Below, piece after piece: positions 53,683 through 64,000 of a stretch of 64,000 nucleotides of DNA (positions are counted from its first letter, which is position 1; every line of letters begins with the position of its first letter). Source of the stretch: Myxococcota bacterium (GTDB lineage: Bacteria > Myxococcota_A > Polyangia > Nannocystales > Nannocystaceae); assembly GCA_039028615.1 (NCBI GenBank), contig JBCCHT010000016.1:64001-128000 (forward strand). Direction: 5' to 3'. The position numbers and the translations under genes were made by a program. Below the pieces are notes generated by a model. It made no database searches. It saw nothing but the letters and a program-made list of their open reading frames with translations, and was not told where the DNA came from.

Positions 53683-54782
53683 CCGGGATCTGGACCCGCC
53701 CCGCGGGGCGCTACTTCACCAACGGCGGTGACACCAAGCTCGCGCGACTCCTTCGCCACTACGAATGGACGGAGACGCCGCAGGCCAACGACGCGGACCT
53801 GCTGCTGCTCGGCTCGCCCCGCCACTTGTCGGAAGTGACCCGTCGCCCGAACCAGCGGGTGGACTGCGTCGCGGGGACCGAGCAGCTCACCCACAAGGCC
53901 AACCTCGCGCGCCTGTTGCGGGCCGATCCGCGCACGGCGGCTCTTCAACCCGAGACCTATCTCGTCGACGAGAGTCCGCTGGAGCGCGCGCGCCTGGCCG
54001 AGCGAGCCCGGGCCGAGCCCGACGCCGTATGGATCCGCAAGCCCGTGGCGCGGGGGCGTGGCATCGGGGTGCAAGTGCTGACCGACGTCGAGGGCTTCCT
54101 GCGCGAGTCGGCCGAGCGAGCCCATGGCTCCGAGCTGGTGCAGCGCTACATCGAGCAGCCGCTGTTGCTCGAGGGGACGAAATCGGAGGTGCGGTCGTAT
54201 GTGCTGGTCGCGAGCACCGATCCCCTGCTCGTGCTCTATCACGACGGCACGGTGCGCCTGACCAGCTTGCCCTACGAGACTGGCGATTGGTCCAACCCGC
54301 TGCGACATGTGACCAATACCTACCGGCAGAAGGAGGCCTCGGCGTCGCTGTGGAGCGAGCGTGGCGACGCCCTCAAGTGGACGCTGGGGCGCCTGGGGCA
54401 GGATGTGCACGCCCGCGGCCTCACCGATGACCCACAGTGGATCGATCGTCGCCTGCGACCCGCGCTCATCGGCATGCTGCACCAGGTCTTCGCGGTCGCG
54501 GCTCCGCACCTGCGGCCGCAACCCGGTGCCTTCCAGCTGCTGGGTATGGACACGATCATCGAGGGCGACCTCGAGAAGTTGTGGCTCACCGAGATCCAGC
54601 TCGGGCCCGGGTTGTCGATCGACAATCCGGTCAAGGCCACGTTGATCCCGTCGATGCTGCAGGAAGCGGTCTCGATCGCCCTGGAGGTCCACGACCGGAT
54701 CGAGGCGGGGCTCGATCCCACCGAGCTGAGCAGTCGTCGGCACTTCCGCTGGGTCTATCGCGGGCAGCCGGTCACGGGCTGA
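53679..54782 (+). CDS. Tubulin-tyrosine-ligase-like ATP-grasp ligase
   Basis: WIRKP...RG.G, VQRYIEQPLLLEG.K..VRSYVLV, HVTN, FQLLGMD, WLTEIQ..P. Confidence 0.85.
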   Translation: MTGIWTRPAGRYFTNGGDTKLARLLRHYEWTETPQANDADLLLLGSPRHLSEVTRRPNQRVDCVAGTEQLTHKANLARLLRADPRTAALQPETYLVDESPLERARLAERARAEPDAVWIRKPVARGRGIGVQVLTDVEGFLRESAERAHGSELVQRYIEQPLLLEGTKSEVRSYVLVASTDPLLVLYHDGTVRLTSLPYETGDWSNPLRHVTNTYRQKEASASLWSERGDALKWTLGRLGQDVHARGLTDDPQWIDRRLRPALIGMLHQVFAVAAPHLRPQPGAFQLLGMDTIIEGDLEKLWLTEIQLGPGLSIDNPVKATLIPSMLQEAVSIALEVHDRIEAGLDPTELSSRRHFRWVYRGQPVTG

Positions 54783-56919
54783 GCGCGTCGGTGATTCGAT
54801 CGACGAGCACGGGGACGTCGTCGTCGCTCACGCCGACCAGCCCGATGCGAAACTGCTGGGGGTCGTCGCTCGCGGCCGGGTACAGCTCGATGCCCTGGCC
54901 GCGGAGGCCTTCGATCAACGTCGCGGCCGGGATCTCGGCGCATCGCATGGCCAGCACGAGCGGCATCCGATGGGGGGCCTCGACGACGGGTCGAACACCC
55001 ACCGCGGACAGGCCCTCGACGATGGCGAGGGACCGCCGCCGATAGGCCGCCCCGCGTGCCGCCGGACCGCCCTCGGCCGACAGCTCCTCGAGCGCCACGT
55101 CCAGCGCCCGGATGGCCCCGGTCGCGCTGGTGAACGGACTCTGCCCGTCCTGCTCGAGGCGTCGCCAGTGAGCGGCGAGGTCCAGGGTTGCGCTCGGGCC
55201 TCCGGGAGCGGCCTCGAGCAGCGAGCTCCGGGTGAACACCAAGCCGAGACCGGCCGGGCCGTGGAGACCCTTGGCGGCGGAGGCAAAGGCGACGTCGATG
55301 CCCAGGGCGGGAAGATCGATCGGGGTCAGCCCCAGCGAACCCACGATGTCCACCGCCATCGCCACGCCGTGACGCCGAGCGACGGCGGCGATCGACTCGA
55401 TGGGGTGCAGGACGCCGGTCGAGGTCTCCGCGTGCACGAAGGCCAGCCACTGAAGGCCGGGTTTTGCGGTCAGGGCGTGGTCGATCACCGCAGGGTCGAC
55501 CGGGCGATCCCGCGGGACCTCGACGGGCACGACTTCGTGGCCCCAGCGGCGAGCCATGGCCGCGATGCGGGCCCCGTAGCGCCCGGCGACGACCACCGCG
55601 ATGCGCCGCTGCGTGGGGAGCAGCGAGCCCACGATCGCATCGAGGGCCGAGGTGGCGCTCCCCGCCAGCGGCACGCAGGCGTAGTCGTCGTCGGCGACCA
55701 TCTCGACCAAGGTCCGTCGAACCCGCGCGGTGCTCTGCGTCTGAGCCTCCGAGCGGGAGCCGACTTCGCGGCCCATCGCGCGCTGTGCAGCCAGCGAGAG
55801 TCGGCCGGGACCCGGAGTGAACAGCCGCGGGCCGACGGCCGAGCCCGGCTCGGTCGCGACGTCCCTGCGGGAGCCGGGTCGCGGCGGCACGGGGTCGGCG
55901 TGTGCTTCGATCTCGACATGCACGAGGGCAGGCCCGGGACGGGGATCGACGAGCGCGGCTTCCAGCTGGGTCGCGTCGGATACGGAGACCCCGCGACGGT
56001 AGCCGAGCGCCCGCCCCAGCGCGGCCCGATCGCTTCGACCCCATGGCGTGGACGTTCCCCCGACCGACTCGTGGCAGCCGTTGTCGAGCACCACGTGGAC
56101 GAAGTTCATGGGGGCTCGTCCCGCACTCACCACGGCCGAGCCCAGGTGCATGAGCGCCGCGCCGTCTCCTTCGATGCACACGACGGGGCGGGCGGGCTCG
56201 GCGAGCGCCAAGCCGAGGGCGAATGAGATGCCGTGGCCCATGCCTCCCGCGGCGAGCACGTCGTCGGCCGGCTCTGGGCGACGCGAAGCGAGTTCGCGTC
56301 CGACGTAGCCGACGCCCGCCACGAGACGCGCCCGCGGATCGATGACCCGTACGAGCGTGGCAATGGCGTCGCCCCGACCGAAGCCGTCTCGCTGGGGTCG
56401 CGGGGGCACGGTGAACGTGCCCGGGGTCACCAGTAGCGCGGTGGAGCGGCCATCGGCGTCGAGTCGGCGATACGCTTCGGCGACGGCATCGTCGATCCCC
56501 GCCGGGTCGCGAGGGAGACGATGGACCCGGAGCCCCGCCTGATGGCACATCGCTTCGGTGTACTCGCCGTGCCAGCGATGATGGGCGACGTCGGGCACCT
56601 CGGGGTGACCGCGCCATCCCACGATCCAGGGCACGGCCGCATCGAGCACGTCGGGGCCGACCAGTGACCCGTGCGCATCGATGGCGATCCCCAGGCCCGT
56701 GTTCTGCAAGTACACGGCCGCTCGCACTCCGCCCCGTCGCAAACCACTGGCCAGGGCGACCGCGCCGCCTTCGTTGGCGGCCACGATATGCCGAGCGCCC
56801 GTCGCAGCGAACCGTTCACCGAGCTGCGGCAGGGTGGAGTCGGGCACGCCCACCAGCGCCTCCACGCGGGCGTTGGCCAGGGCCTCGACCAGGGCGCCGA
56901 TATCGACCGAGGGGATCAT
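54772..56919 (-). CDS. Fusion: phosphonopyruvate decarboxylase + 2-aminoethylphosphonate transaminase
   Basis: N-terminal half GVPDS, ANEG.AVA, YLQN.GLG, GGMGH, GDGAALMHLG, DNG.HESVGG. C-terminal half LFTPGP, HAETSTG, SAAKGL.G.AG, FRIG. Confidence 0.88.
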   Translation of the reverse strand: MIPSVDIGALVEALANARVEALVGVPDSTLPQLGERFAATGARHIVAANEGGAVALASGLRRGGVRAAVYLQNTGLGIAIDAHGSLVGPDVLDAAVPWIVGWRGHPEVPDVAHHRWHGEYTEAMCHQAGLRVHRLPRDPAGIDDAVAEAYRRLDADGRSTALLVTPGTFTVPPRPQRDGFGRGDAIATLVRVIDPRARLVAGVGYVGRELASRRPEPADDVLAAGGMGHGISFALGLALAEPARPVVCIEGDGAALMHLGSAVVSAGRAPMNFVHVVLDNGCHESVGGTSTPWGRSDRAALGRALGYRRGVSVSDATQLEAALVDPRPGPALVHVEIEAHADPVPPRPGSRRDVATEPGSAVGPRLFTPGPGRLSLAAQRAMGREVGSRSEAQTQSTARVRRTLVEMVADDDYACVPLAGSATSALDAIVGSLLPTQRRIAVVVAGRYGARIAAMARRWGHEVVPVEVPRDRPVDPAVIDHALTAKPGLQWLAFVHAETSTGVLHPIESIAAVARRHGVAMAVDIVGSLGLTPIDLPALGIDVAFASAAKGLHGPAGLGLVFTRSSLLEAAPGGPSATLDLAAHWRRLEQDGQSPFTSATGAIRALDVALEELSAEGGPAARGAAYRRRSLAIVEGLSAVGVRPVVEAPHRMPLVLAMRCAEIPAATLIEGLRGQGIELYPAASDDPQQFRIGLVGVSDDDVPVLVDRITDALSP

Positions 56920-57830
56920 TGTTGGTCGATGAAGCGCAGCAGATCGGCGAAGGGCACACAGTCCGATTCCACCGCGTCGGCTCGGCCCTCTCGAAGGAGG
57001 GTCTGCGCCGTGTGCTGCATCGTCGCCAGTGCGGCTCGCAGCAGTTGGTTGGCGTACACCACCACGTCGATCCCCGCCTCGACCAGCTGCTCTTCGTGGG
57101 CATCGGGATAGCCGGTCGGCACCGCGAAGAGCGGGACTCGGATGTCGCTGGCTCGACAGCGGCGAGCCACCTCGAGCACCGGATCCGCGCTCGGGCCTCG
57201 GCCGTGGATGAGCAGCGCGTCGGCCCCCGCTCCCACGTATGCGTGGGCTCGCTCGAGCGCCGCCTCCACCGATTCCCCACGCAGCAGAGACTCGATACGG
57301 GCGACGACCAGCGGTCCATGGGGAGGCCGAGCCGCGACGGCGGCTTGGAGCTTGGTGCAGAACGAGGCGATGCTCGCGGCGGGCTGGTGCACGTCGGCGG
57401 CCGCTTCCAACGAATTGCGCTTGCGCCCCGCTTTGTCTTCGAACACGACGGCCGCGACGCCTAGCCGAGCCAGCCGCCGCACGAGACCAGCGGCTTGCTC
57501 GGGCCACCCCCCCGTGTCGCCGTCGAACACGGCCGGCAGGGGCGAAGCATCGAGAGTCCACGCCAGCGAGGCGAGCCGCGAGCCCAGGTCGACCATCTCT
57601 TCGTCGGGCTGAGCCCGCGTCGCGGAGTCGGCGAGGCTGCCGACCCACAAACCATCGAAGCGCCGCTGTTGCGGCCCGTTTCCCACGACCGCGGTCGCGG
57701 CGACGCGAGCCGAGAGTCCATCGTGGGCTTGGAGGAGCCGCAGAGGCCGTGGTCCCTCGGCCAGCCGACGGCGCAACGCCGCGGCGCCCGAGATGTGCTC
57801 ATTCGCCGGTGGCGGCGTCGTCGTCGTCAT
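56916..57830 (-). CDS. pepM: Phosphoenolpyruvate mutase
   Basis: AHDGLSA, DGDTGG, EDKAGRKRNS (EDKxxxxxNS signature), ARIES, GADALLIH, YANQLLR. Start is 57830 or 57842. Confidence 0.92.
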   Translation of the reverse strand: MTTTTPPPANEHISGAAALRRRLAEGPRPLRLLQAHDGLSARVAATAVVGNGPQQRRFDGLWVGSLADSATRAQPDEEMVDLGSRLASLAWTLDASPLPAVFDGDTGGWPEQAAGLVRRLARLGVAAVVFEDKAGRKRNSLEAAADVHQPAASIASFCTKLQAAVAARPPHGPLVVARIESLLRGESVEAALERAHAYVGAGADALLIHGRGPSADPVLEVARRCRASDIRVPLFAVPTGYPDAHEEQLVEAGIDVVVYANQLLRAALATMQHTAQTLLREGRADAVESDCVPFADLLRFIDQQ

Positions 57831-58173
57831 CGTCTTCGTCATCGCCGGTCCCCATGCCGCCGAGGTCCGGCAGTGGCGGGAGGCTGTCGTCGTCGGCCGC
57901 ATCGTCGCCGTTGCCGGTCGTGTCGCCTTGGGGCGCGCCGCTGGTCGTCGAAGACGGGCGGCCGCCGCTCGAGTCGGCCATGCCGTCGGCGCCGCCGGTT
58001 CCCGCACCCGTACCCGTCGCTGCGTCGCCTCCCGAGCTCGTGCCGCCGGTTTGTTCCCACGGCGGCGTCGAGTCGTCGCCCCCCGTGGCCGTGGCTTCGT
58101 CCGGGCCGTTACCGCAGCCCGAGATGAGCGAGGCGATGGCGGCGAGATCGACGATTCGTTCCTTGATTGGCAT
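57799..58173 (-). CDS. Small low-complexity lipoprotein with poly-acidic tail
   Basis: LISGC lipobox; Gly/Thr/Asp-rich; ends DDEDDDDDDAATGE. Confidence 0.6.
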   Translation of the reverse strand: MPIKERIVDLAAIASLISGCGNGPDEATATGGDDSTPPWEQTGGTSSGGDAATGTGAGTGGADGMADSSGGRPSSTTSGAPQGDTTGNGDDAADDDSLPPLPDLGGMGTGDDEDDDDDDAATGE

Positions 58174-58182
58174 ATTGAACTC

Positions 58183-59310
58183 TCACGGGCAGGGGGTGAG
58201 CACCATGACGTCCTCGAACGAGGGGCTCGCGTGGTGCTTCACCTGGCAACGGGCGGCGGTGGAGAACACCACCCCCGAGACGGGGCCGCGGGGGGCGCCC
58301 TGGTTGGAATTGTCTTCGGTGACCTCGAAGCGGACGACGTATTCGCCGGCTGGCATCACGTTGACGCCCGAGTCTCGTAGGTCCCACTCGACCAGGCGCG
58401 AGTGGTGCGACGACGCGGTCGCGGCGGTGATGGCATCGACCCGGTCGCCGAGCGAGCGCGAGAACCACGCCACGAGGTGCTCGCGGCGAACGTTGCCCCA
58501 CACTGAAAGCGAGCGCACGAACTGGCCCTGGATGTCCTCGATCCAGATCGCGCCCACGTTGTCGGGGGCATAATTGCCGCCGTAGGAGCCCGTGCGTAGC
58601 TGAATCATGACCACGTCGTTGGCCGGGGCGCCGTTCAGGCGCCGGAGCCGAGCGTCGAACACCACGTCCGGGGTGCCGCGCTGGTGAATCTCTGCCGCGA
58701 GCACGTGCGGCCCCTCGGCGGTGGCCGGAGGCGCGGGCAGGGCGATGAAGTAGGTGTAGCCATCGACGCTCTGGACTTCGTCGGGGACGGATGCGCTGGA
58801 GCCGGAGGTTCCGGGGGCGACGTTCCAGCGACCGACTTCGACGCCATCGAGGTAGGCGATCGCCCCGTCGTCACGGCGCAGGCGAAGCTCGAGGATGTCC
58901 TCGGGAGCGAACTCGGCATCGAAGGTATGTCGCAGATAGACGGAGCGACCGTCGCCGGGCCACTCGCTCGTGACGTCGTAGCCCGAGCCCAGCGGAGCCT
59001 CTCGCTCCTCCCACGCCGCATCGTCGAAATCCACCGCGGTCCAGCCCGAAGCCGGCGCCGCCGTCACGCGCCAGCGTGCTCCGCTGGGGACCAGCGTCGA
59101 GCCTGGGACTCCGCCATCGTCGCCTCCGCCCGCGCTGTCGAGTCCGTCCAGGCCACCCCCGGCCGGACCGCCGTCGCCGAAGCCGGTGGTCCCCGAGTCG
59201 GCTGCGGGCGCATCGGGGGCCAGCGGTTCTTCGATCGACAGGCCGCCGCTCTCGCAGCTAGCGATGAGAGCGAGGATCGAGGACACGACGACGGTGCGGA
59301 TCAGTTGCAT
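58183..59310 (-). CDS. Lipoprotein with beta-sandwich domain and C-terminal DUF2271-like domain
   Basis: LIASC lipobox; 'DDGAIAYLDG.EV'; 'YAP.NV.AIWIED..G.FVRSL..WG...DAITAAT...WDLRD..G.Y...E'. Confidence 0.75.
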   Translation of the reverse strand: MQLIRTVVVSSILALIASCESGGLSIEEPLAPDAPAADSGTTGFGDGGPAGGGLDGLDSAGGGDDGGVPGSTLVPSGARWRVTAAPASGWTAVDFDDAAWEEREAPLGSGYDVTSEWPGDGRSVYLRHTFDAEFAPEDILELRLRRDDGAIAYLDGVEVGRWNVAPGTSGSSASVPDEVQSVDGYTYFIALPAPPATAEGPHVLAAEIHQRGTPDVVFDARLRRLNGAPANDVVMIQLRTGSYGGNYAPDNVGAIWIEDIQGQFVRSLSVWGNVRREHLVAWFSRSLGDRVDAITAATASSHHSRLVEWDLRDSGVNVMPAGEYVVRFEVTEDNSNQGAPRGPVSGVVFSTAARCQVKHHASPSFEDVMVLTPCP

Positions 59311-59570
59311 CCGCACCCGCCTCCACCGCCGCCCCAACCACCGACGGACGCTTCGCGATACTCGTCGGCGTGGTCCTGACCGGCCGCGAGATCGGCGGGT
59401 CGCTCGAGCGTCATGTCCGGTTGGGCGAGTCGTCCACGCTGATACGGCGACACCGTGACGCATCCACCGAGGGCCAGTGCAGTCCCGATCAACCCGGCGC
59501 GTAGGGCCCGGGCTCGAACCGTTCGCACTCCAATGCGGACGGGCTCGAGGAAGTGGCGGACGAGGTGCAC
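59301..59570 (-). CDS. DUF4266-like lipoprotein
   Basis: LGGC lipobox, V.PYQRG.LA...M, H...YRE...GG.G..GGGCGCN C-terminus. Confidence 0.88.
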   Translation of the reverse strand: MHLVRHFLEPVRIGVRTVRARALRAGLIGTALALGGCVTVSPYQRGRLAQPDMTLERPADLAAGQDHADEYREASVGGWGGGGGGCGCN

Positions 59571-59592
59571 TGCGTTGGACGATATTGATTTA

Positions 59593-59611
59593 ATTGAAAA
59601 TGTAAATCAAA
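59593..59611. promoter_or_regulatory. Fur-family box 5
   Basis: ATTGAAAATGTAAATCAAA in an AT-rich patch about 22 bp upstream of the DUF4266 gene. Confidence 0.55.
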
Positions 59612-59786
59612 ATTGATTGGATCCTCACCATTAAAACGATGTTCATTGGCTATATTCGAGCAAAGGTGCCCTCTGTGGTCGAATTTTGACTTGAGGATTC
59701 ATCAAGAAAGCGCTGCTTGGGCTCACACGGCACCGCCACGAGTGCTGCGTAGCCGTCGTGCGACGCGTGGTCACGATGATGGGCGG

Positions 59787-61397
59787 TCAGCCCACGGGCG
59801 GCTGACAGATCCCGCCCGCCTCGATCTGCGCCTGCGTACGGAAGGTGTTCAGCTCGCCCCAGTGCGGGATCTCGACCGCGGGGATGGTGCCGTCCTCGCG
59901 GATGTTGGTCACGTGATACGTGTGCTGATTCCAGATTCGCCGCGCGGAGATCCATCGGTCCTGTACGTCGCGGATCACCTGGAGCGCGGGCGCGGTCTGG
60001 TCGTCGAACCAACCCGCGTTGGAGACCACGAGGATCTCGGCGGAGCCGTCGTTGTCGACGTCGGCGACCACCGGGTACTCGCTCAAGGTGCCGCTGCTGC
60101 GAGGGACCTCGAGCAGGACGTTGCCGTCGCCATCGAAGACATAGAGGTTCTGCTCGTCGCCGTACATCGCCTCGGCGATGCCGTCGCCGAGGAAGTCGAA
60201 GGCGGTGCCCGCCGCACTGCCGGTCACGTCGGTGACGGGGGCGGTCCACAACACGTCGCCATCGGACTCGAACACGGAGTAGATGCCGCCCGAGCTGGTG
60301 GCGAGCTCGGCCACGCCGTCGCCGTCGAAGTCGTGCACGGTCGGCGGGCGGATCCAGGAGGTGCCGTCGGACATGATGCCGCTGGGGCGAAGCCCGGCCG
60401 TCTTCACCGTGCCGTCGTGCTCGAGGATGCTGATGCCGTCGAAGCTCTGCACCACCACCTCCGGCTCGGGGTCTTCGTCGAGGTTGGCGACCAGCGGATA
60501 CCCGGTGGGGACCTCTTCAGTGCGGTAGTACTCGGTTCCGTCGGCGTGGAAGGCACTGCGCCCGAGTACGATCTCGAGCTCGCCGTCGCCGTCGAGGTCG
60601 GCCGCGGTCGTGGCGTTGCCCCACCCGGTGATGGTGGTCTCCTCGAGCATCAGGCTGAGCTGGCCTTCGGCGTCGAAGACGAGGTTGTCGGCCAAGATCT
60701 CCACCGAGCCGTCGCCCTCGAGGTCGGCCAGCGCCAGCGACGAGAACCCGAAGTCGAGCCAGGGCTGGTCGCTCTGCCAGGCCATGGTGCCGTCGTGCTC
60801 GAAGGCGAGGAGGAAGTTGATGCCGTGCGCGACGGCGACGATCTCGGGCAGCCCGTCACCATCGATGTCGCCCAGGGCGGGGGTGAACGAGGCGTCGATG
60901 ATGGCGTCGGTGCTCCAGTGTACGGCCCCGGTGGCGCCGTCGAGCACGTACATGGAGCCCGCGAAGTTGGCGTAGTTGGCGAAGGCGATCACCACGATGT
61001 CGGGTGTGTCGCACAGGTCGATGGTGCCGTTGCCATCGTCGTCGGTGAGGTTGGCGACCAGCGGGATGGCGATGGCCTGAGTGTTGGCCCCGTCGCCGTT
61101 CCAGCTCCACTGCACCTCGGGCTCGAAGCTGTCGGGCGGGGCGCTGTCGGTGCAGGGCCCGATGCCGCTCATGTCGTCGACGACGTCGCAGGTCGGGGCC
61201 GCGCCCACGTCGATGGTGCTGACGTCGAGAAACTCGTCGCTCGTGGCGGTCTCGTCGGCGCCATCGGTGGTCGATGCGGCGACGGTCGTCGTGCCGGGAC
61301 CACCGGTCGGCTCGGTGTCGAAGGGGTTGCTTCCATCGTCTCCGCAGCTGACGACCATTACGGCCGCCGCGAGCAAGGTCCCACGAGCGCTTCGCAT
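59787..61397 (-). CDS. FG-GAP/VCBS repeat beta-propeller lipoprotein
   Basis: VVSC lipobox; multiple D.DGDG..EI repeats; 'RRIWNQH.YHVTNI'. Confidence 0.88.
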   Translation of the reverse strand: MRSARGTLLAAAVMVVSCGDDGSNPFDTEPTGGPGTTTVAASTTDGADETATSDEFLDVSTIDVGAAPTCDVVDDMSGIGPCTDSAPPDSFEPEVQWSWNGDGANTQAIAIPLVANLTDDDGNGTIDLCDTPDIVVIAFANYANFAGSMYVLDGATGAVHWSTDAIIDASFTPALGDIDGDGLPEIVAVAHGINFLLAFEHDGTMAWQSDQPWLDFGFSSLALADLEGDGSVEILADNLVFDAEGQLSLMLEETTITGWGNATTAADLDGDGELEIVLGRSAFHADGTEYYRTEEVPTGYPLVANLDEDPEPEVVVQSFDGISILEHDGTVKTAGLRPSGIMSDGTSWIRPPTVHDFDGDGVAELATSSGGIYSVFESDGDVLWTAPVTDVTGSAAGTAFDFLGDGIAEAMYGDEQNLYVFDGDGNVLLEVPRSSGTLSEYPVVADVDNDGSAEILVVSNAGWFDDQTAPALQVIRDVQDRWISARRIWNQHTYHVTNIREDGTIPAVEIPHWGELNTFRTQAQIEAGGICQPPVG

Positions 61398-61488
61398 CGG
61401 GGGGACCGTGGCAGATTCGTGGCTCGCCCGCAAAGGGGGTGCTCGGCGCTTGCACCGAGCGCGTCGCGTTGCGAGCCTGGCTGCGGCC

Positions 61489-62631
61489 ATGGCCTCCGTC
61501 CGTGAAGACTCGGGACCGCACGCGTCCGTCATGGCTTTGCCCCAGCCCAGCCGACGGGCCCGTTTTTGGTGGTGGGTGGTGTTGGTGCTGCTCGCGTCGG
61601 GGTACGCCGCACTGCGGCTGACCATGAACGAGGAGTATCGGGTGGCGCCCTGGGCCGCGATCGTGGAGCTGCGGGCCCCGCTGCCCTTTGGCCACCGCGT
61701 GCTGGTGCCGCTGCTCGCTCGACCTCTCGTCGATGCGGGGGTCTCGTTGCGCCTGGTGCTCGGCGGGTTCGAGGCCTTCGCGACCGCGGGGTTGATGGCG
61801 GCGACGGCTTGGACGCTGCGTCCCCATGTCGGCCAGCGCCTGGCGATGGCGGCCGGGCTCGGGATTCTGTGCATCCTGCCCTGGCCCTATCTCCTGCCGC
61901 ACGAGTGGCCGATCTTTTATCCGTGGGACACCCCGGCCATGGCCCTTCTCATGGCGGGGCTGGGGGCGATCGACCGGCGGCGATGGGGGCTTTCGCTGGG
62001 CATCGCCGCAGCGGCCGCGCTCAACCGGGAGAGTGCCATCCTGCTCCCGGTCGTCGCGGTGCTGTGGGTGCCACCGCGCGCCGAGGACTGGCGCCCGGCC
62101 CTGGCTCGAGTGGCCGGGCTCGTTGCGGTGGTCTTGTTCGTTCGTATGGGTGTCGCGCTGACCCTGCCCGACAACCCGGGGCCACCCGTTCACTTCACCA
62201 TCGGTAAGGGTGAATATCGGGTGTTCAACAACCTGCGATGGTTGTCCGATCCGCTTCACGTGTTGGCGGCCATTCCCAGCCTCGCCGCGTGGCCCCTTTG
62301 TTGGCCGCTGATGAGATCGGCGGTCGCTCCACGCATGCGTCGTCTGTGGCTCGTCGCGTGGATGCAAACCGCCGGCCTCCTGCTCGTTGCGAATATCTAC
62401 GAGCCGCGGGCATTCGGCGAAGTCTTGGTCCTGGCCTATGTGCCATCACTGGTGGGCGGGGCGCGCTGGTTGGGTCTGGGACCCGAACACGAAGCCCACG
62501 CCTCACCGCGATGGCTGAGGGTCGTCGACCGCCACGGGGCGTGGCTCGTTGCGTTGGCATTCATTGCGTTCGTGCTTGCGCTCCAACAGTGGAGCTTCTT
62601 GCCCGTGGCTCAGTGGCCCATGCCTCGTTGA
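61489..62631 (+). CDS. Multi-pass membrane protein of unknown function (possibly GT-C-like)
   Basis: About 9-10 hydrophobic segments; 'PF..RVLVP', 'NRES'. Start uncertain. Confidence 0.65.
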   Translation: MASVREDSGPHASVMALPQPSRRARFWWWVVLVLLASGYAALRLTMNEEYRVAPWAAIVELRAPLPFGHRVLVPLLARPLVDAGVSLRLVLGGFEAFATAGLMAATAWTLRPHVGQRLAMAAGLGILCILPWPYLLPHEWPIFYPWDTPAMALLMAGLGAIDRRRWGLSLGIAAAAALNRESAILLPVVAVLWVPPRAEDWRPALARVAGLVAVVLFVRMGVALTLPDNPGPPVHFTIGKGEYRVFNNLRWLSDPLHVLAAIPSLAAWPLCWPLMRSAVAPRMRRLWLVAWMQTAGLLLVANIYEPRAFGEVLVLAYVPSLVGGARWLGLGPEHEAHASPRWLRVVDRHGAWLVALAFIAFVLALQQWSFLPVAQWPMPR

Positions 62632-62680
62632 CGAGGCGGGGCGCTCGGGCGCAGCCGAGCCGATGGACAGAGGAAAAGGT

Positions 62681-62811
62681 GATCGCGACGAGAGATGTGA
62701 AGACGTTTACGCGTTCTACCGATTGAACTACCGCCCCGAAGTGGTGGAGCGACCCGGACTCGAACCGAGAACCTCGTCATTGGAAATGTAGTCTTCACTG
62801 CATTCGCGATC
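62681..62811 (-). ncRNA. YrlA-like Y RNA with circularly permuted tRNA-like domain
   Basis: Terminal stem GAUCGCGA/UCGCGAUC. Inside: T-arm CUCGG-UUCGAGU-CCGGG, acceptor stem closed by ACCACUUC, D-arm GUUC-AAUCGGUA-GAAC. Downstream of TROVE. Confidence 0.85.
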
Positions 62812-62830
62812 GAAGATCGATGAAAAAGGT

Positions 62831-62895
62831 GGCTGCGACGAGGTGTTCGAAGAGACGGTCGGTAATGGATGTAGTCTCTTCGGGCATTCGCGGCC
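62831..62895 (-). ncRNA. Short (65-nt) Y-RNA-like unit
   Basis: Same scaffold (CGAAUG...AGACUACAU-loop-CGUCU...GUCG, then ACCUUUUU) with an 11-nt loop. Confidence 0.7.
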
Positions 62896-62914
62896 GAAGT
62901 CGTTGAAAAAAGGT

Positions 62915-62979
62915 GGCTACGACCAGGTGTTCGAGGAGACGCATTTTTCCGGATGTAGTCTCCCCGGGCATTCGTAGCC
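62915..62979 (-). ncRNA. Short (65-nt) Y-RNA-like unit
   Basis: GGCUACGA/UCGUAGCC terminal stem, same scaffold, different 11-nt loop; starts 8 nt after the TROVE stop. Confidence 0.7.
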
Positions 62980-62987
62980 GAAGGGGT

Positions 62988-64000
62988 TCACAGGGCGATG
63001 GAGTCGATCTCGCCCACCCAGTGCTTGCTGTCGATCCCGTTGTCGATGAACGAGCCTACGAGGTCGAACACGGCGTCGGAGAAGCCGCCCACGTTGAGGA
63101 TGTCGTCCCGCTCGGGGGCCTGGGTGTTGGGGTAGGGCTGGATGTCGATGCAGACCAACTTGGCCTTGGGGTTGCGACGCTTGTACTTCGTCCACTCGGT
63201 CATGACCTGCGTGCCGGGGTTCCAGCTGCGGGTCTCGTCGATCCACGACTGGTTGTCCGAGACGAAGACCACCAGGTCACCCGTGGCCTTTTGCGCGTTG
63301 AGCCGAGCCAAGGGGGCCGCGCACTTGGTGCCGCCGCTGGGCAGCGAGGCCAAGCGATTGGCGTTGGTCATGATGCTGTCGCGGGGGTTGAGGGGGCAGG
63401 GCTGGACGCGATCGTGGAAGGGCAGGACGTTGGTCTTAGGGTTGGTACGCAGGAACGCGGCGGCGATGAGGGCCGCGATGTCGATGCAGCGGACCACCGA
63501 GGTGGCGCCGGGGCGGTGACCGGTGGCGGCCGAGTGCATGGAGCCTGAGATGTCGGGCAGCACGTGCACGGTGCCCTGGGTGCGAGGCACGTTGGCCACC
63601 GCGATCTCCATGGCATCCTGCAGGGCTTCGCGAACGGGCAGCGGGACTCGCTCGTCGAGCTGGGTGTAGGCCACCATGAGCTGGTAGGGGAACACTCGGG
63701 CGCGACGCACCTCCTTGGGGGATGCGAGCCGTCGCGCGATCATGCGTACGGTGTCGGGGTTCTCGAAGACGCCGTGGCGGGCGAAGGTGTTGAGGTTCAT
63801 GCGGGTCATCTGCCAGCCGGCATCGCGGGCGATCTGCGTCCACGCCGAGGTGTCGAGCGACAGCGCGGTGAGGAGCTGGAAGGGGACCTTGGGGATGTGC
63901 GTGGTGTGCCCGTTCTTGTACGCGAGGTAGTCCTTCACGATGGTGGGCAGGGCGTCGGGGTCGTGGGGGCGGCCCACGAGGTAGCCATACAGGGCCCGGC
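62988..64000 (-). CDS. Ro60/Rsr-like TROVE domain RNA-binding protein (5'-truncated by the window edge)
   Basis: 'WQMTRMNLNTFARHGVF', 'ARVFPYQL', vWA MIDAS DISGSM, SDNQSW, 'NVGGFSD.VF'. The frame stays open to the window end. Confidence 0.93.
   Translation of the reverse strand, partial: RALYGYLVGRPHDPDALPTIVKDYLAYKNGHTTHIPKVPFQLLTALSLDTSAWTQIARDAGWQMTRMNLNTFARHGVFENPDTVRMIARRLASPKEVRRARVFPYQLMVAYTQLDERVPLPVREALQDAMEIAVANVPRTQGTVHVLPDISGSMHSAATGHRPGATSVVRCIDIAALIAAAFLRTNPKTNVLPFHDRVQPCPLNPRDSIMTNANRLASLPSGGTKCAAPLARLNAQKATGDLVVFVSDNQSWIDETRSWNPGTQVMTEWTKYKRRNPKAKLVCIDIQPYPNTQAPERDDILNVGGFSDAVFDLVGSFIDNGIDSKHWVGEIDSIAL

Follow-up and report, generated by a model that had tools for sequence, protein, structure and literature searches.

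Predicted permuted tRNA with an anticodon loop and an alanine-type acceptor in a Y-RNA array beside the rsr gene of a Nannocystaceae bacterium

Introduction

According to Chen 2014 (PMC4201824), bacterial species make at least two Y RNAs from polycistronic precursors, and published sets of this kind combine a tRNA-like RNA with a hairpin RNA; Table S1 of that paper places the tRNA-like form, YrlA, downstream of rsr, the gene of the Ro60 orthologue Rsr, in Plesiocystis and Sorangium. The hairpin preceding the T arm of YrlA has been called a variable loop, and YrlA itself is said to be without an anticodon loop (PMC4201824; Wang 2018, 10.1101/312249). In Salmonella, an rsr-yrlBA-rtcBA operon controlled by RtcR and sigma-54 is activated by cleavage of anticodon loops, and YrlA was proposed to act as a competitive inhibitor of the nuclease (Hughes 2020, PMC7790460). 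The role of bacterial Y RNAs in such RNA-repair operons is stated as open (10.1101/312249; PMC7790460). Here we analyze a 64,000-nucleotide stretch (hereafter the window; positions 64,001 to 128,000 of contig JBCCHT010000016.1, assembly GCA_039028615.1) from a myxococcotal bacterium of the Nannocystaceae, in which an earlier note had pointed to three Y-RNA-like units directly downstream of rsr.

A Y-RNA array within an RNA-repair locus is already a known kind of setting, and the new part is what the RNAs display. The longest unit is predicted to contain all parts of a tRNA in permuted order, including an anticodon loop and an acceptor of alanine type, and the published 'V loop' of YrlA would often be an anticodon arm in tRNA register. 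This is apparently unpublished: we found no published description of anticodon loops or of alanine identity in bacterial Y RNAs, a provisional statement since relevant reviews may mention them. With the 'V loop' as an anticodon arm, YrlA would be modeled as a mimic of the whole tRNA, its anticodon exchangeable, and no longer as a mimic of the elbow; the minimal Y RNAs, so far uncatalogued, would acquire a defined payload, and the role of Y RNAs would become directly testable, also with the YrlA of M. smegmatis, already shown to be expressed and bound to Rsr (PMC4201824). With somewhat less than even confidence, we read the array as a damage-induced, Ro60-tethered panel of tRNA decoys. The window is a good example for its tRNA-like unit and a weak one for its short units; the family-level signal is strong, and the function is what we infer.

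Results and Discussion

A permuted tRNA on a Y RNA scaffold

The third unit of the array (unit 3; 62681..62811, minus strand, 131 nt) is a YrlA-like RNA in which a predicted Ro-binding scaffold is joined to a circularly permuted tRNA. The search with the Rfam YrlA model suggested in the earlier note returned a match of unit 3 to the whole of RF02553 (model positions 1-114; 61.3 bits, E 1.6e-12), and because this score falls under the gathering score of 69 we file unit 3 as a YrlA-like variant. Its scaffold stems are formed by 62811-62804/62688-62681 and 62798-62791/62704-62697. Between them follow, on the minus strand, an anticodon arm (62775..62788; loop UUUCCAA at 62786-62780, anticodon UCC), a variable region of 5 nt with a T arm of 5 bp and a UUCGAGU loop (62753..62774), a closed 7-bp acceptor stem (62731..62752, with G1 at 62737), and a D arm of 4 bp with GG in its loop (62713..62728), which is the permuted order of YrlA. 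The anticodon arm is an 11-nt insertion relative to the RF02553 model. Two local pairs and three pairs with 62711-62709 make up a composite anticodon stem of 5 bp, which the scaffold leaves between tRNA positions 29 and 30. The loop is one mismatch away from that of the genome's own tRNA-Gly(UCC), and unit 3 is the sole unit of the array to present a 7-nt Y32-U33-NNN-R37 loop closed by a stem. The acceptor has G1-C72, G2-C71, G3.U70 and G4-C69, with A73-CCA (62745-62742) inside the closing loop, and thus carries all four of the bacterial alanine determinants listed in PMC9976931 (A73, G2-C71, G3.U70 and G4-C69).

With YrlA as published (RF02553; Chen 2014, PMC4201824; Wang 2018, 10.1101/312249) unit 3 shares the CGAAUG core, YUAY, the order of T arm, closed acceptor and D arm, and a position within 4 kb of rsr on the same strand. 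In the YrlA motif GNCGAAN0-1G, the CGAAUG core is exact in all three units of the array, while the leading G is replaced by U, C and C, a position that covaries in relatives. Unit 3 departs from the published description in having, where that describes a variable ('V') loop, a 7-nt in-register anticodon loop on a composite 5-bp stem, and in its alanine-type acceptor, a feature unmentioned for YrlA in the available portions of PMC4201824 and 10.1101/312249. In Chen's alignment (PMC4201824), 4 of 11 rows have an in-register anticodon-type loop by eye (Streptosporangium, Gordonia, M. smegmatis and Gloeocapsa); the Salmonella YrlA row is without a 7-nt anticodon-type loop. The permuted tRNA genes that algae and archaea possess (10.1101/312249) resemble unit 3 in their closed acceptor loop and in ends that lie at the anticodon stem, whereas the ends of unit 3 form the predicted Ro60-binding stem.

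ARAGORN calls no tRNA gene in 58000-64000. Elsewhere in the genome the YrlA model has four other matches (at most 34 bits), which by eye are tRNA genes, including two tandem pairs, and not Y RNAs. In the tandem pairs (L003, G000 C23:6477-6552; L004, G000 C1:247419-247527) the match extends from the T arm of the first tRNA into the D arm of the second, which a dimer-origin model of YrlA predicts. Many additional tRNAs are called in this genome, and some of them have unusual loops.

The acceptor raises the question of charging. Transfer-messenger RNA (tmRNA) is a non-canonical tRNA mimic with an alanine-type acceptor, and it is charged by AlaRS regardless of anticodon; unit 3 has the same type of acceptor on a tRNA mimic and differs in being without a tag reading frame. 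In unit 3 the CCA is encoded inside a closed loop, and the identity elements make the RNA a candidate for alanine acceptance. RNase P might open the acceptor loop, trimming would then bare the CCA, and AlaRS would charge the RNA whatever its anticodon, for it to read hungry codons or bring Rsr to stalled ribosomes. We consider such a rescue role quite improbable. It would account for the four identity elements of unit 3 and for features of its relatives (a set of 125 related rsr loci described below), where a 7-bp acceptor stem is in register in 101 of 121 YrlA-type units and G.U occupies pair 3:70 in 31 of these 101, against 1-12 at other pairs. Units with G3.U70 also have A73 more often (25/31 versus 20/70 without it) and G1-C72/G2-C71 (27/31 versus 12/70), while their pairs 4-7 vary in 14 ways. 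The YrlA of M. smegmatis is cut by RNase P and gains CCA, yet that of Salmonella is not cleaved (both PMC4201824). Moreover, G3.U70 is missing in 70 of the 101 units, encoded CCA is not significantly enriched with it (6/31 versus 6/70), in unit 3 the place of G20 in the loop is taken by U, an acceptor is wholly lacking in minimal units, and a scaffold branching from the anticodon stem would likely clash in the A site. A bolder version, in which rsr loci would be a tRNA-damage kit of programmable tRNA mimics, is in our judgment a long shot: here the RNase P-opened, alanine-charged unit 3 would replace the cleaved tRNA at hungry codons, possibly as a true tRNA after RtcB-dependent removal of the Ro-binding stem, and minimal units would be anticodon cassettes on a Ro60 handle.

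Anticodon loops in related rsr loci

We parsed 185 rsr loci and kept 125 as a non-redundant set at <85% Rsr identity. These hold 393 units on the rsr strand and none on the opposite strand, with at least one unit in 118 loci and at least three in 80; about 2 are expected from the parser background (52 matches on both strands of 12.3 Mb), and the counts are lower bounds, the final parser missing some units (4 found versus 7 earlier at one locus, L019). They fall into 121 YrlA-type units, 109 minimal units, 92 with a T arm and no recognised D arm, 10 opened at the D loop and 61 others. Several insert classes on one Ro-binding scaffold are the pattern that the earlier note had proposed as a modular cassette with exchangeable inserts, and judged by sequence this cassette is real and widespread. 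Exchangeability of the 'effector inserts' has thus been borne out; what had been overlooked is their nature, as anticodon loops of tRNA type or, in unit 3, as an entire permuted tRNA that includes an alanine-type acceptor.

A second permutation is seen in the 10 D-loop-opened units (L024, L029, L040, L042, L088, L092, L093, L108, L131 and L070), where the Y scaffold enters through the D loop and the tRNA mimic is complete, its anticodon arm intact and its acceptor closed. Conserved inserts that are not tRNA-like recur on Y scaffolds in at least two types, just upstream of rsr in L020, L021, L023, L024, L088 and L094 and also in L070, L097 and L167; a word comparison, itself a weak test, gave no match of these to rRNA.

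To assess the minimal units we searched for a Y-U-N-N-N-R-(A/C/U) loop closed by at least 2 pairs, in the 102 units whose insert reaches 9 nt (7 of the 109 are shorter), and compared the loops with the 65 distinct anticodon loops of this genome's tRNAs. The motif was present in 54 of the 102, against a mean of 5.8 and a maximum of 14 in 300 shuffles, and an exact real anticodon loop in 28, against 0.6 in shuffles. The predicted hairpin loop is 7 nt long in 46 of all 109. For YrlA-type units the register was tested in the 91 of 121 with 13-24 nt between scaffold and T arm: counting positions 32-38 back from the T arm, 50 fit the motif and 24 are exact loops, compared with 0-2 exact loops at eight other offsets. 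Partners of the 3' strand of the anticodon stem lie in part on the scaffold side and in part beyond the D arm; added together, these local and distal pairs come to exactly 5 in 38 of 59 units (mean of the distal pairs 2.4, against 1.1 when permuted). Many YrlA-type RNAs are therefore predicted to be complete permuted tRNAs whose Ro-binding stem leaves from the 5' strand of the anticodon stem.

The 116 qualifying loops contain 40 anticodons and follow rules of real tRNAs. G37 accompanies G36 in 12 of 21 loops, as against 4 of 95 loops without G36 (real tRNAs, 12/17). Exact loops number 54 of 116, versus 38.5 +/- 3.7 when context is shuffled (reached in 0 of 5000), and anticodons unused by bacteria are depleted (15 versus 26 expected). 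A single stem carries up to 12 different loops, which argues against the copying of whole arms from tRNA genes. Owing to the relatedness of the loci and the choice of the 116 loops by motif, p-values overstate these signals; the main ones persist at 70% Rsr identity, where 18 of 45 minimal units pass the motif, 9 of 45 are exact, and the G36-G37 coupling is 6/7 versus 1/36.

Two alternatives would leave the loops without a role of their own. In the more ordinary, the RNAs act as a tether between Rsr and PNPase or some other effector (RYPER type), or as a gate that closes the Rsr cavity; the shape of a tRNA then does no more than stabilize them or present an elbow, and which loop they carry is incidental. 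A role of this kind was demonstrated with Yrn1 of Deinococcus and has been reported for the YrlA of Salmonella (PMC4201824; 10.1101/312249), and it sits well with the 7 of 109 minimal units that have almost no insert (<9 nt) and with the degenerate short loops of units 1 and 2. It leaves unexplained, however, why exact anticodon loops occur on hairpins without other tRNA parts and why G36 and G37 are coupled, and we regard it as unlikely, though deserving of serious weight. The other alternative is that YrlA arose from a tRNA dimer, the loops and the alanine-type stem being inherited leftovers and minimal units deletion products whose loop has no role. A dimer origin has been modeled in print (10.1101/312249), the tandem tRNA pairs of this genome match the YrlA model, and anticodon turnover is near neutral. 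Between 20 close pairs, anticodon positions differ at 21 of 60 sites, compared with 6% outside the loop. Drift, however, would not let loops land on real tRNA loops after an anticodon change, keep the G36-G37 rule and leave the stems unchanged, as is observed, and we find a mere relic very doubtful.

Layout of the array and its short units

The array consists of three minus-strand units whose 5' ends lie at 62979, 62895 and 62811, 84 nt apart, and the coordinates, sequences, unit lengths (65, 65 and 131 nt) and insert sizes (11, 11 and 80 nt) of the earlier note all hold, as do its terminal stems, that of unit 2 having one C-A mismatch. Each unit has a long stem formed by its 5' and 3' ends and containing an internal loop, as in Y RNAs. 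Unit 1 (62915..62979) is a predicted minimal hairpin Y RNA composed of an 8-bp terminal stem with CGAAUG, the internal loop, a 9-bp inner stem, UACAU and a short loop; its insert (62942..62952) forms a 3-bp hairpin with an 8-nt A-rich loop. Unit 2 (62831..62895), likewise a predicted minimal hairpin Y RNA, is a duplicate of unit 1 with an insert (62858..62868) that may form a 7-nt loop closed by 2 pairs. The equal spacing is due to this duplication, the scaffolds of units 1 and 2 being 87% identical, as against 62-68% between either of them and unit 3. U-rich spacers ending in CUUC separate the units (62896..62914, with a putative processing site, and 62812..62830), and an ACCUUUU tail follows unit 3 (62672..62680); CUUC before and ACCUUUU after each unit were both found as reported. 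ACCU after every unit (62672-62680, 62823-62830 and 62907-62914) resembles a discriminator with a CC tail and is frequent in close relatives, not in distant ones.

The array is not a product of chance, as seen from its folding z-scores against shuffles (-3.4, -3.9 and -1.7 for units 1 to 3), the Rfam match, the rarity of the strict head pattern (5 occurrences in the 12.3-Mb genome, 3 of them here) and stem covariation. Selection on structure, suggested in the earlier note from the terminal stems, is evident in 53 aligned minimal units from many loci, in which 94.5% of stem cells pair (67.9% in shuffles, 35-56% in slid registers) and both partners vary in 14 of 16 pairs. While the array is real, its novelty had been overstated, polycistronic Y RNA sets having been described in Chen 2014.

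Unit 1 starts 8 nt and unit 3 177 nt after the rsr stop codon on the same strand, and no sigma-70 promoter or intrinsic terminator was called within the array or between its units, from which we infer polycistronic transcription with rsr. A covariance-model scan, also proposed in the earlier note, was made with a model of the short units: among the 150 of 4172 first-look candidates that were scored in the genome it matched units 1 and 2 alone (unit 1, part of its training set, at 66 bits). No Y unit was found upstream of rsr, either by this model in the genome or by the parser, which sees three units alone at the locus. Among 41 relatives, the model matched in 9, each rsr-positive and with the match adjoining rsr; since most of these are in the training set, the blanks alone serve as a control, and there were no matches among the 31 relatives without rsr.

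Units 1 and 2 match no Rfam family. As long hairpins with a small loop and no tRNA module they resemble YrlB of Salmonella and M. smegmatis and Yrn2 of Deinococcus, each the second Y RNA of its locus and derived from a polycistronic precursor (PMC4201824), a likeness judged by shape. They differ in their shorter length (65 nt) and in having the exact scaffold of the neighboring YrlA, and in that the minimal class of relatives mostly shows anticodon loops. The insert of unit 1 is one mismatch from the Phe(GAA) anticodon loop and fails the strict loop test, its closeness to real loops being equaled or beaten by 925 of 2000 shuffles; that of unit 2 lacks U33 and purine 37 and is two mismatches from any real anticodon loop. 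Both units look like members of the loop-displaying class whose own loops are degenerate or mimic something else. No excess of common 8-10-mers with the genome's partial 16S/23S rRNA was seen in the inserts, a weak test of rRNA mimicry. A non-canonical loop ending in ACC or CCC recurs among minimal units that fail the anticodon test (L082, L118, L123, L091 and L064), and the unit 2 insert (62858-62868) may be of this type.

The RNA-repair locus and the decoy reading

The 3' two-thirds of rsr (62988..64000, minus strand) lie within the window, and its start lies beyond the window edge at C16:128544. Its product of 518 aa has a TROVE domain (PF05731, 28.2 bits, cut-off 23) and a vWA_Ro60 domain (PF25045, 65.6 bits, cut-off 27.7), and its best match in the PDB is Rsr of D. 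radiodurans (2nvo, E 2.8e-25, residues 13-499 aligned). Upstream on the same strand is rtcR (C16:128751-130364, minus; above the NCBIfam cut-off), with rtcB (C16:130439-131761, plus; above the Pfam cut-off) and rtcA (C16:131763-132815, plus; above the NCBIfam cut-off) divergent beyond it. A motif search placed sigma-54-type sites before rsr (-24/-12, 51 nt upstream of its start) and before rtcB, as befits an RtcR-controlled RNA repair locus. The genes are those of the Salmonella operon (Hughes 2020, PMC7790460), from which the locus differs in its split into two divergent units with rtcR between them, in its three Y RNAs and in an Rsr far below the NCBIfam Rsr cut-off (85 versus 900 bits). Among related loci, 37 of 93 have a sigma-54 motif in the 150 nt that precede rsr, as opposed to 0 of 1000 control windows, and 47 of the 75 with enough flank have at least one of rtcR, rtcB and rtcA. 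The closest relatives of Rsr with taxon titles are from Nannocystaceae and Myxococcales; the gene was found in 10 of 41 relatives and in 7 of 301 genomes of the phylum, so that the rsr locus is patchy and not core.

On the decoy reading, damaged (nicked) tRNA would activate RtcR, leading to transcription of the array together with rsr; the transcript would be cut apart into separate Y RNAs, these would be loaded on Rsr through their common stem, and the displayed loops would divert anticodon nucleases during the repair of nicked tRNA by RtcA and RtcB. Activation of RtcR by nicked tRNA, binding to Rsr and polycistronic processing are carried over from findings in Salmonella, Mycobacterium and Deinococcus; that the array is expressed in this bacterium, binds this Rsr and acts as a decoy is presumed.

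Alternatively, the loops might be meant for cutting, such that a nicked, still paired RNA with a 2',3'-cyclic phosphate binds RtcR and sustains expression of the operon, or sets the time of shut-off by serving RtcB as a built-in substrate. RtcR binds well to a nicked, circularly permuted tRNA whose acceptor is closed (PMC10159003), the topology of unit 3 is similar to it, and rtcR is present in 37 of the 75 loci with enough flank. On the other hand, the remaining 38 have no rtcR within the available flank, minimal units have no tRNA body, and RNAs made only after induction cannot be the first to sense damage; a sentinel role of this kind strikes us as improbable.

Several observations weigh against decoys as well. 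In Salmonella the damage-induced nuclease leaves YrlA uncut (PMC7790460), though this is a YrlA whose row in Chen's alignment shows no 7-nt anticodon-type loop, and a decoy has no obvious need of an alanine-type acceptor. The anticodon-arm pairs of unit 3 have an ensemble probability of 0.22-0.32, in a fold 4.6 kcal/mol above the computed minimum; the arm is thus energetically weak and rests on comparison. Neither unit 1 nor unit 2 passes the loop test, and shuffles come as close to real loops as they do about half the time or more, so that the array presents a single canonical loop. Among relatives, 48 of the 102 minimal units fail the same test, coupling between positions C36 and C38 is not significant (p 0.14), and the absence of repeated anticodons within arrays (0 of 40 pairs versus 1.3 expected) is uninformative. 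Anticodons change at a near-neutral rate (0.28 at four-fold sites of rsr); diversifying selection on them is unsupported, their change being about that at the four-fold sites, with no sign of an arms race. Finally, in the 70 of 120 neighboring open reading frames (ORFs) scanned, no nuclease recurs beside the arrays, where one PIN, one HNH, one Uma2 and one barstar gene were seen.

Neighboring genes

A DUF6847 gene adjoins rsr in two unrelated loci (L183:2258-2710 and L184:5284-5742). In the window, an ORF at 59787-61505 (minus strand) has about nine short Asp-rich repeats, which we take to be FG-GAP or calcium-binding repeats typical of myxobacterial exported proteins. Further along, ORFs in 54772-58007 (minus strand) resemble by eye a phosphoenolpyruvate mutase, a phosphonopyruvate decarboxylase and an aminotransferase, and make up a possible phosphonate gene cluster.

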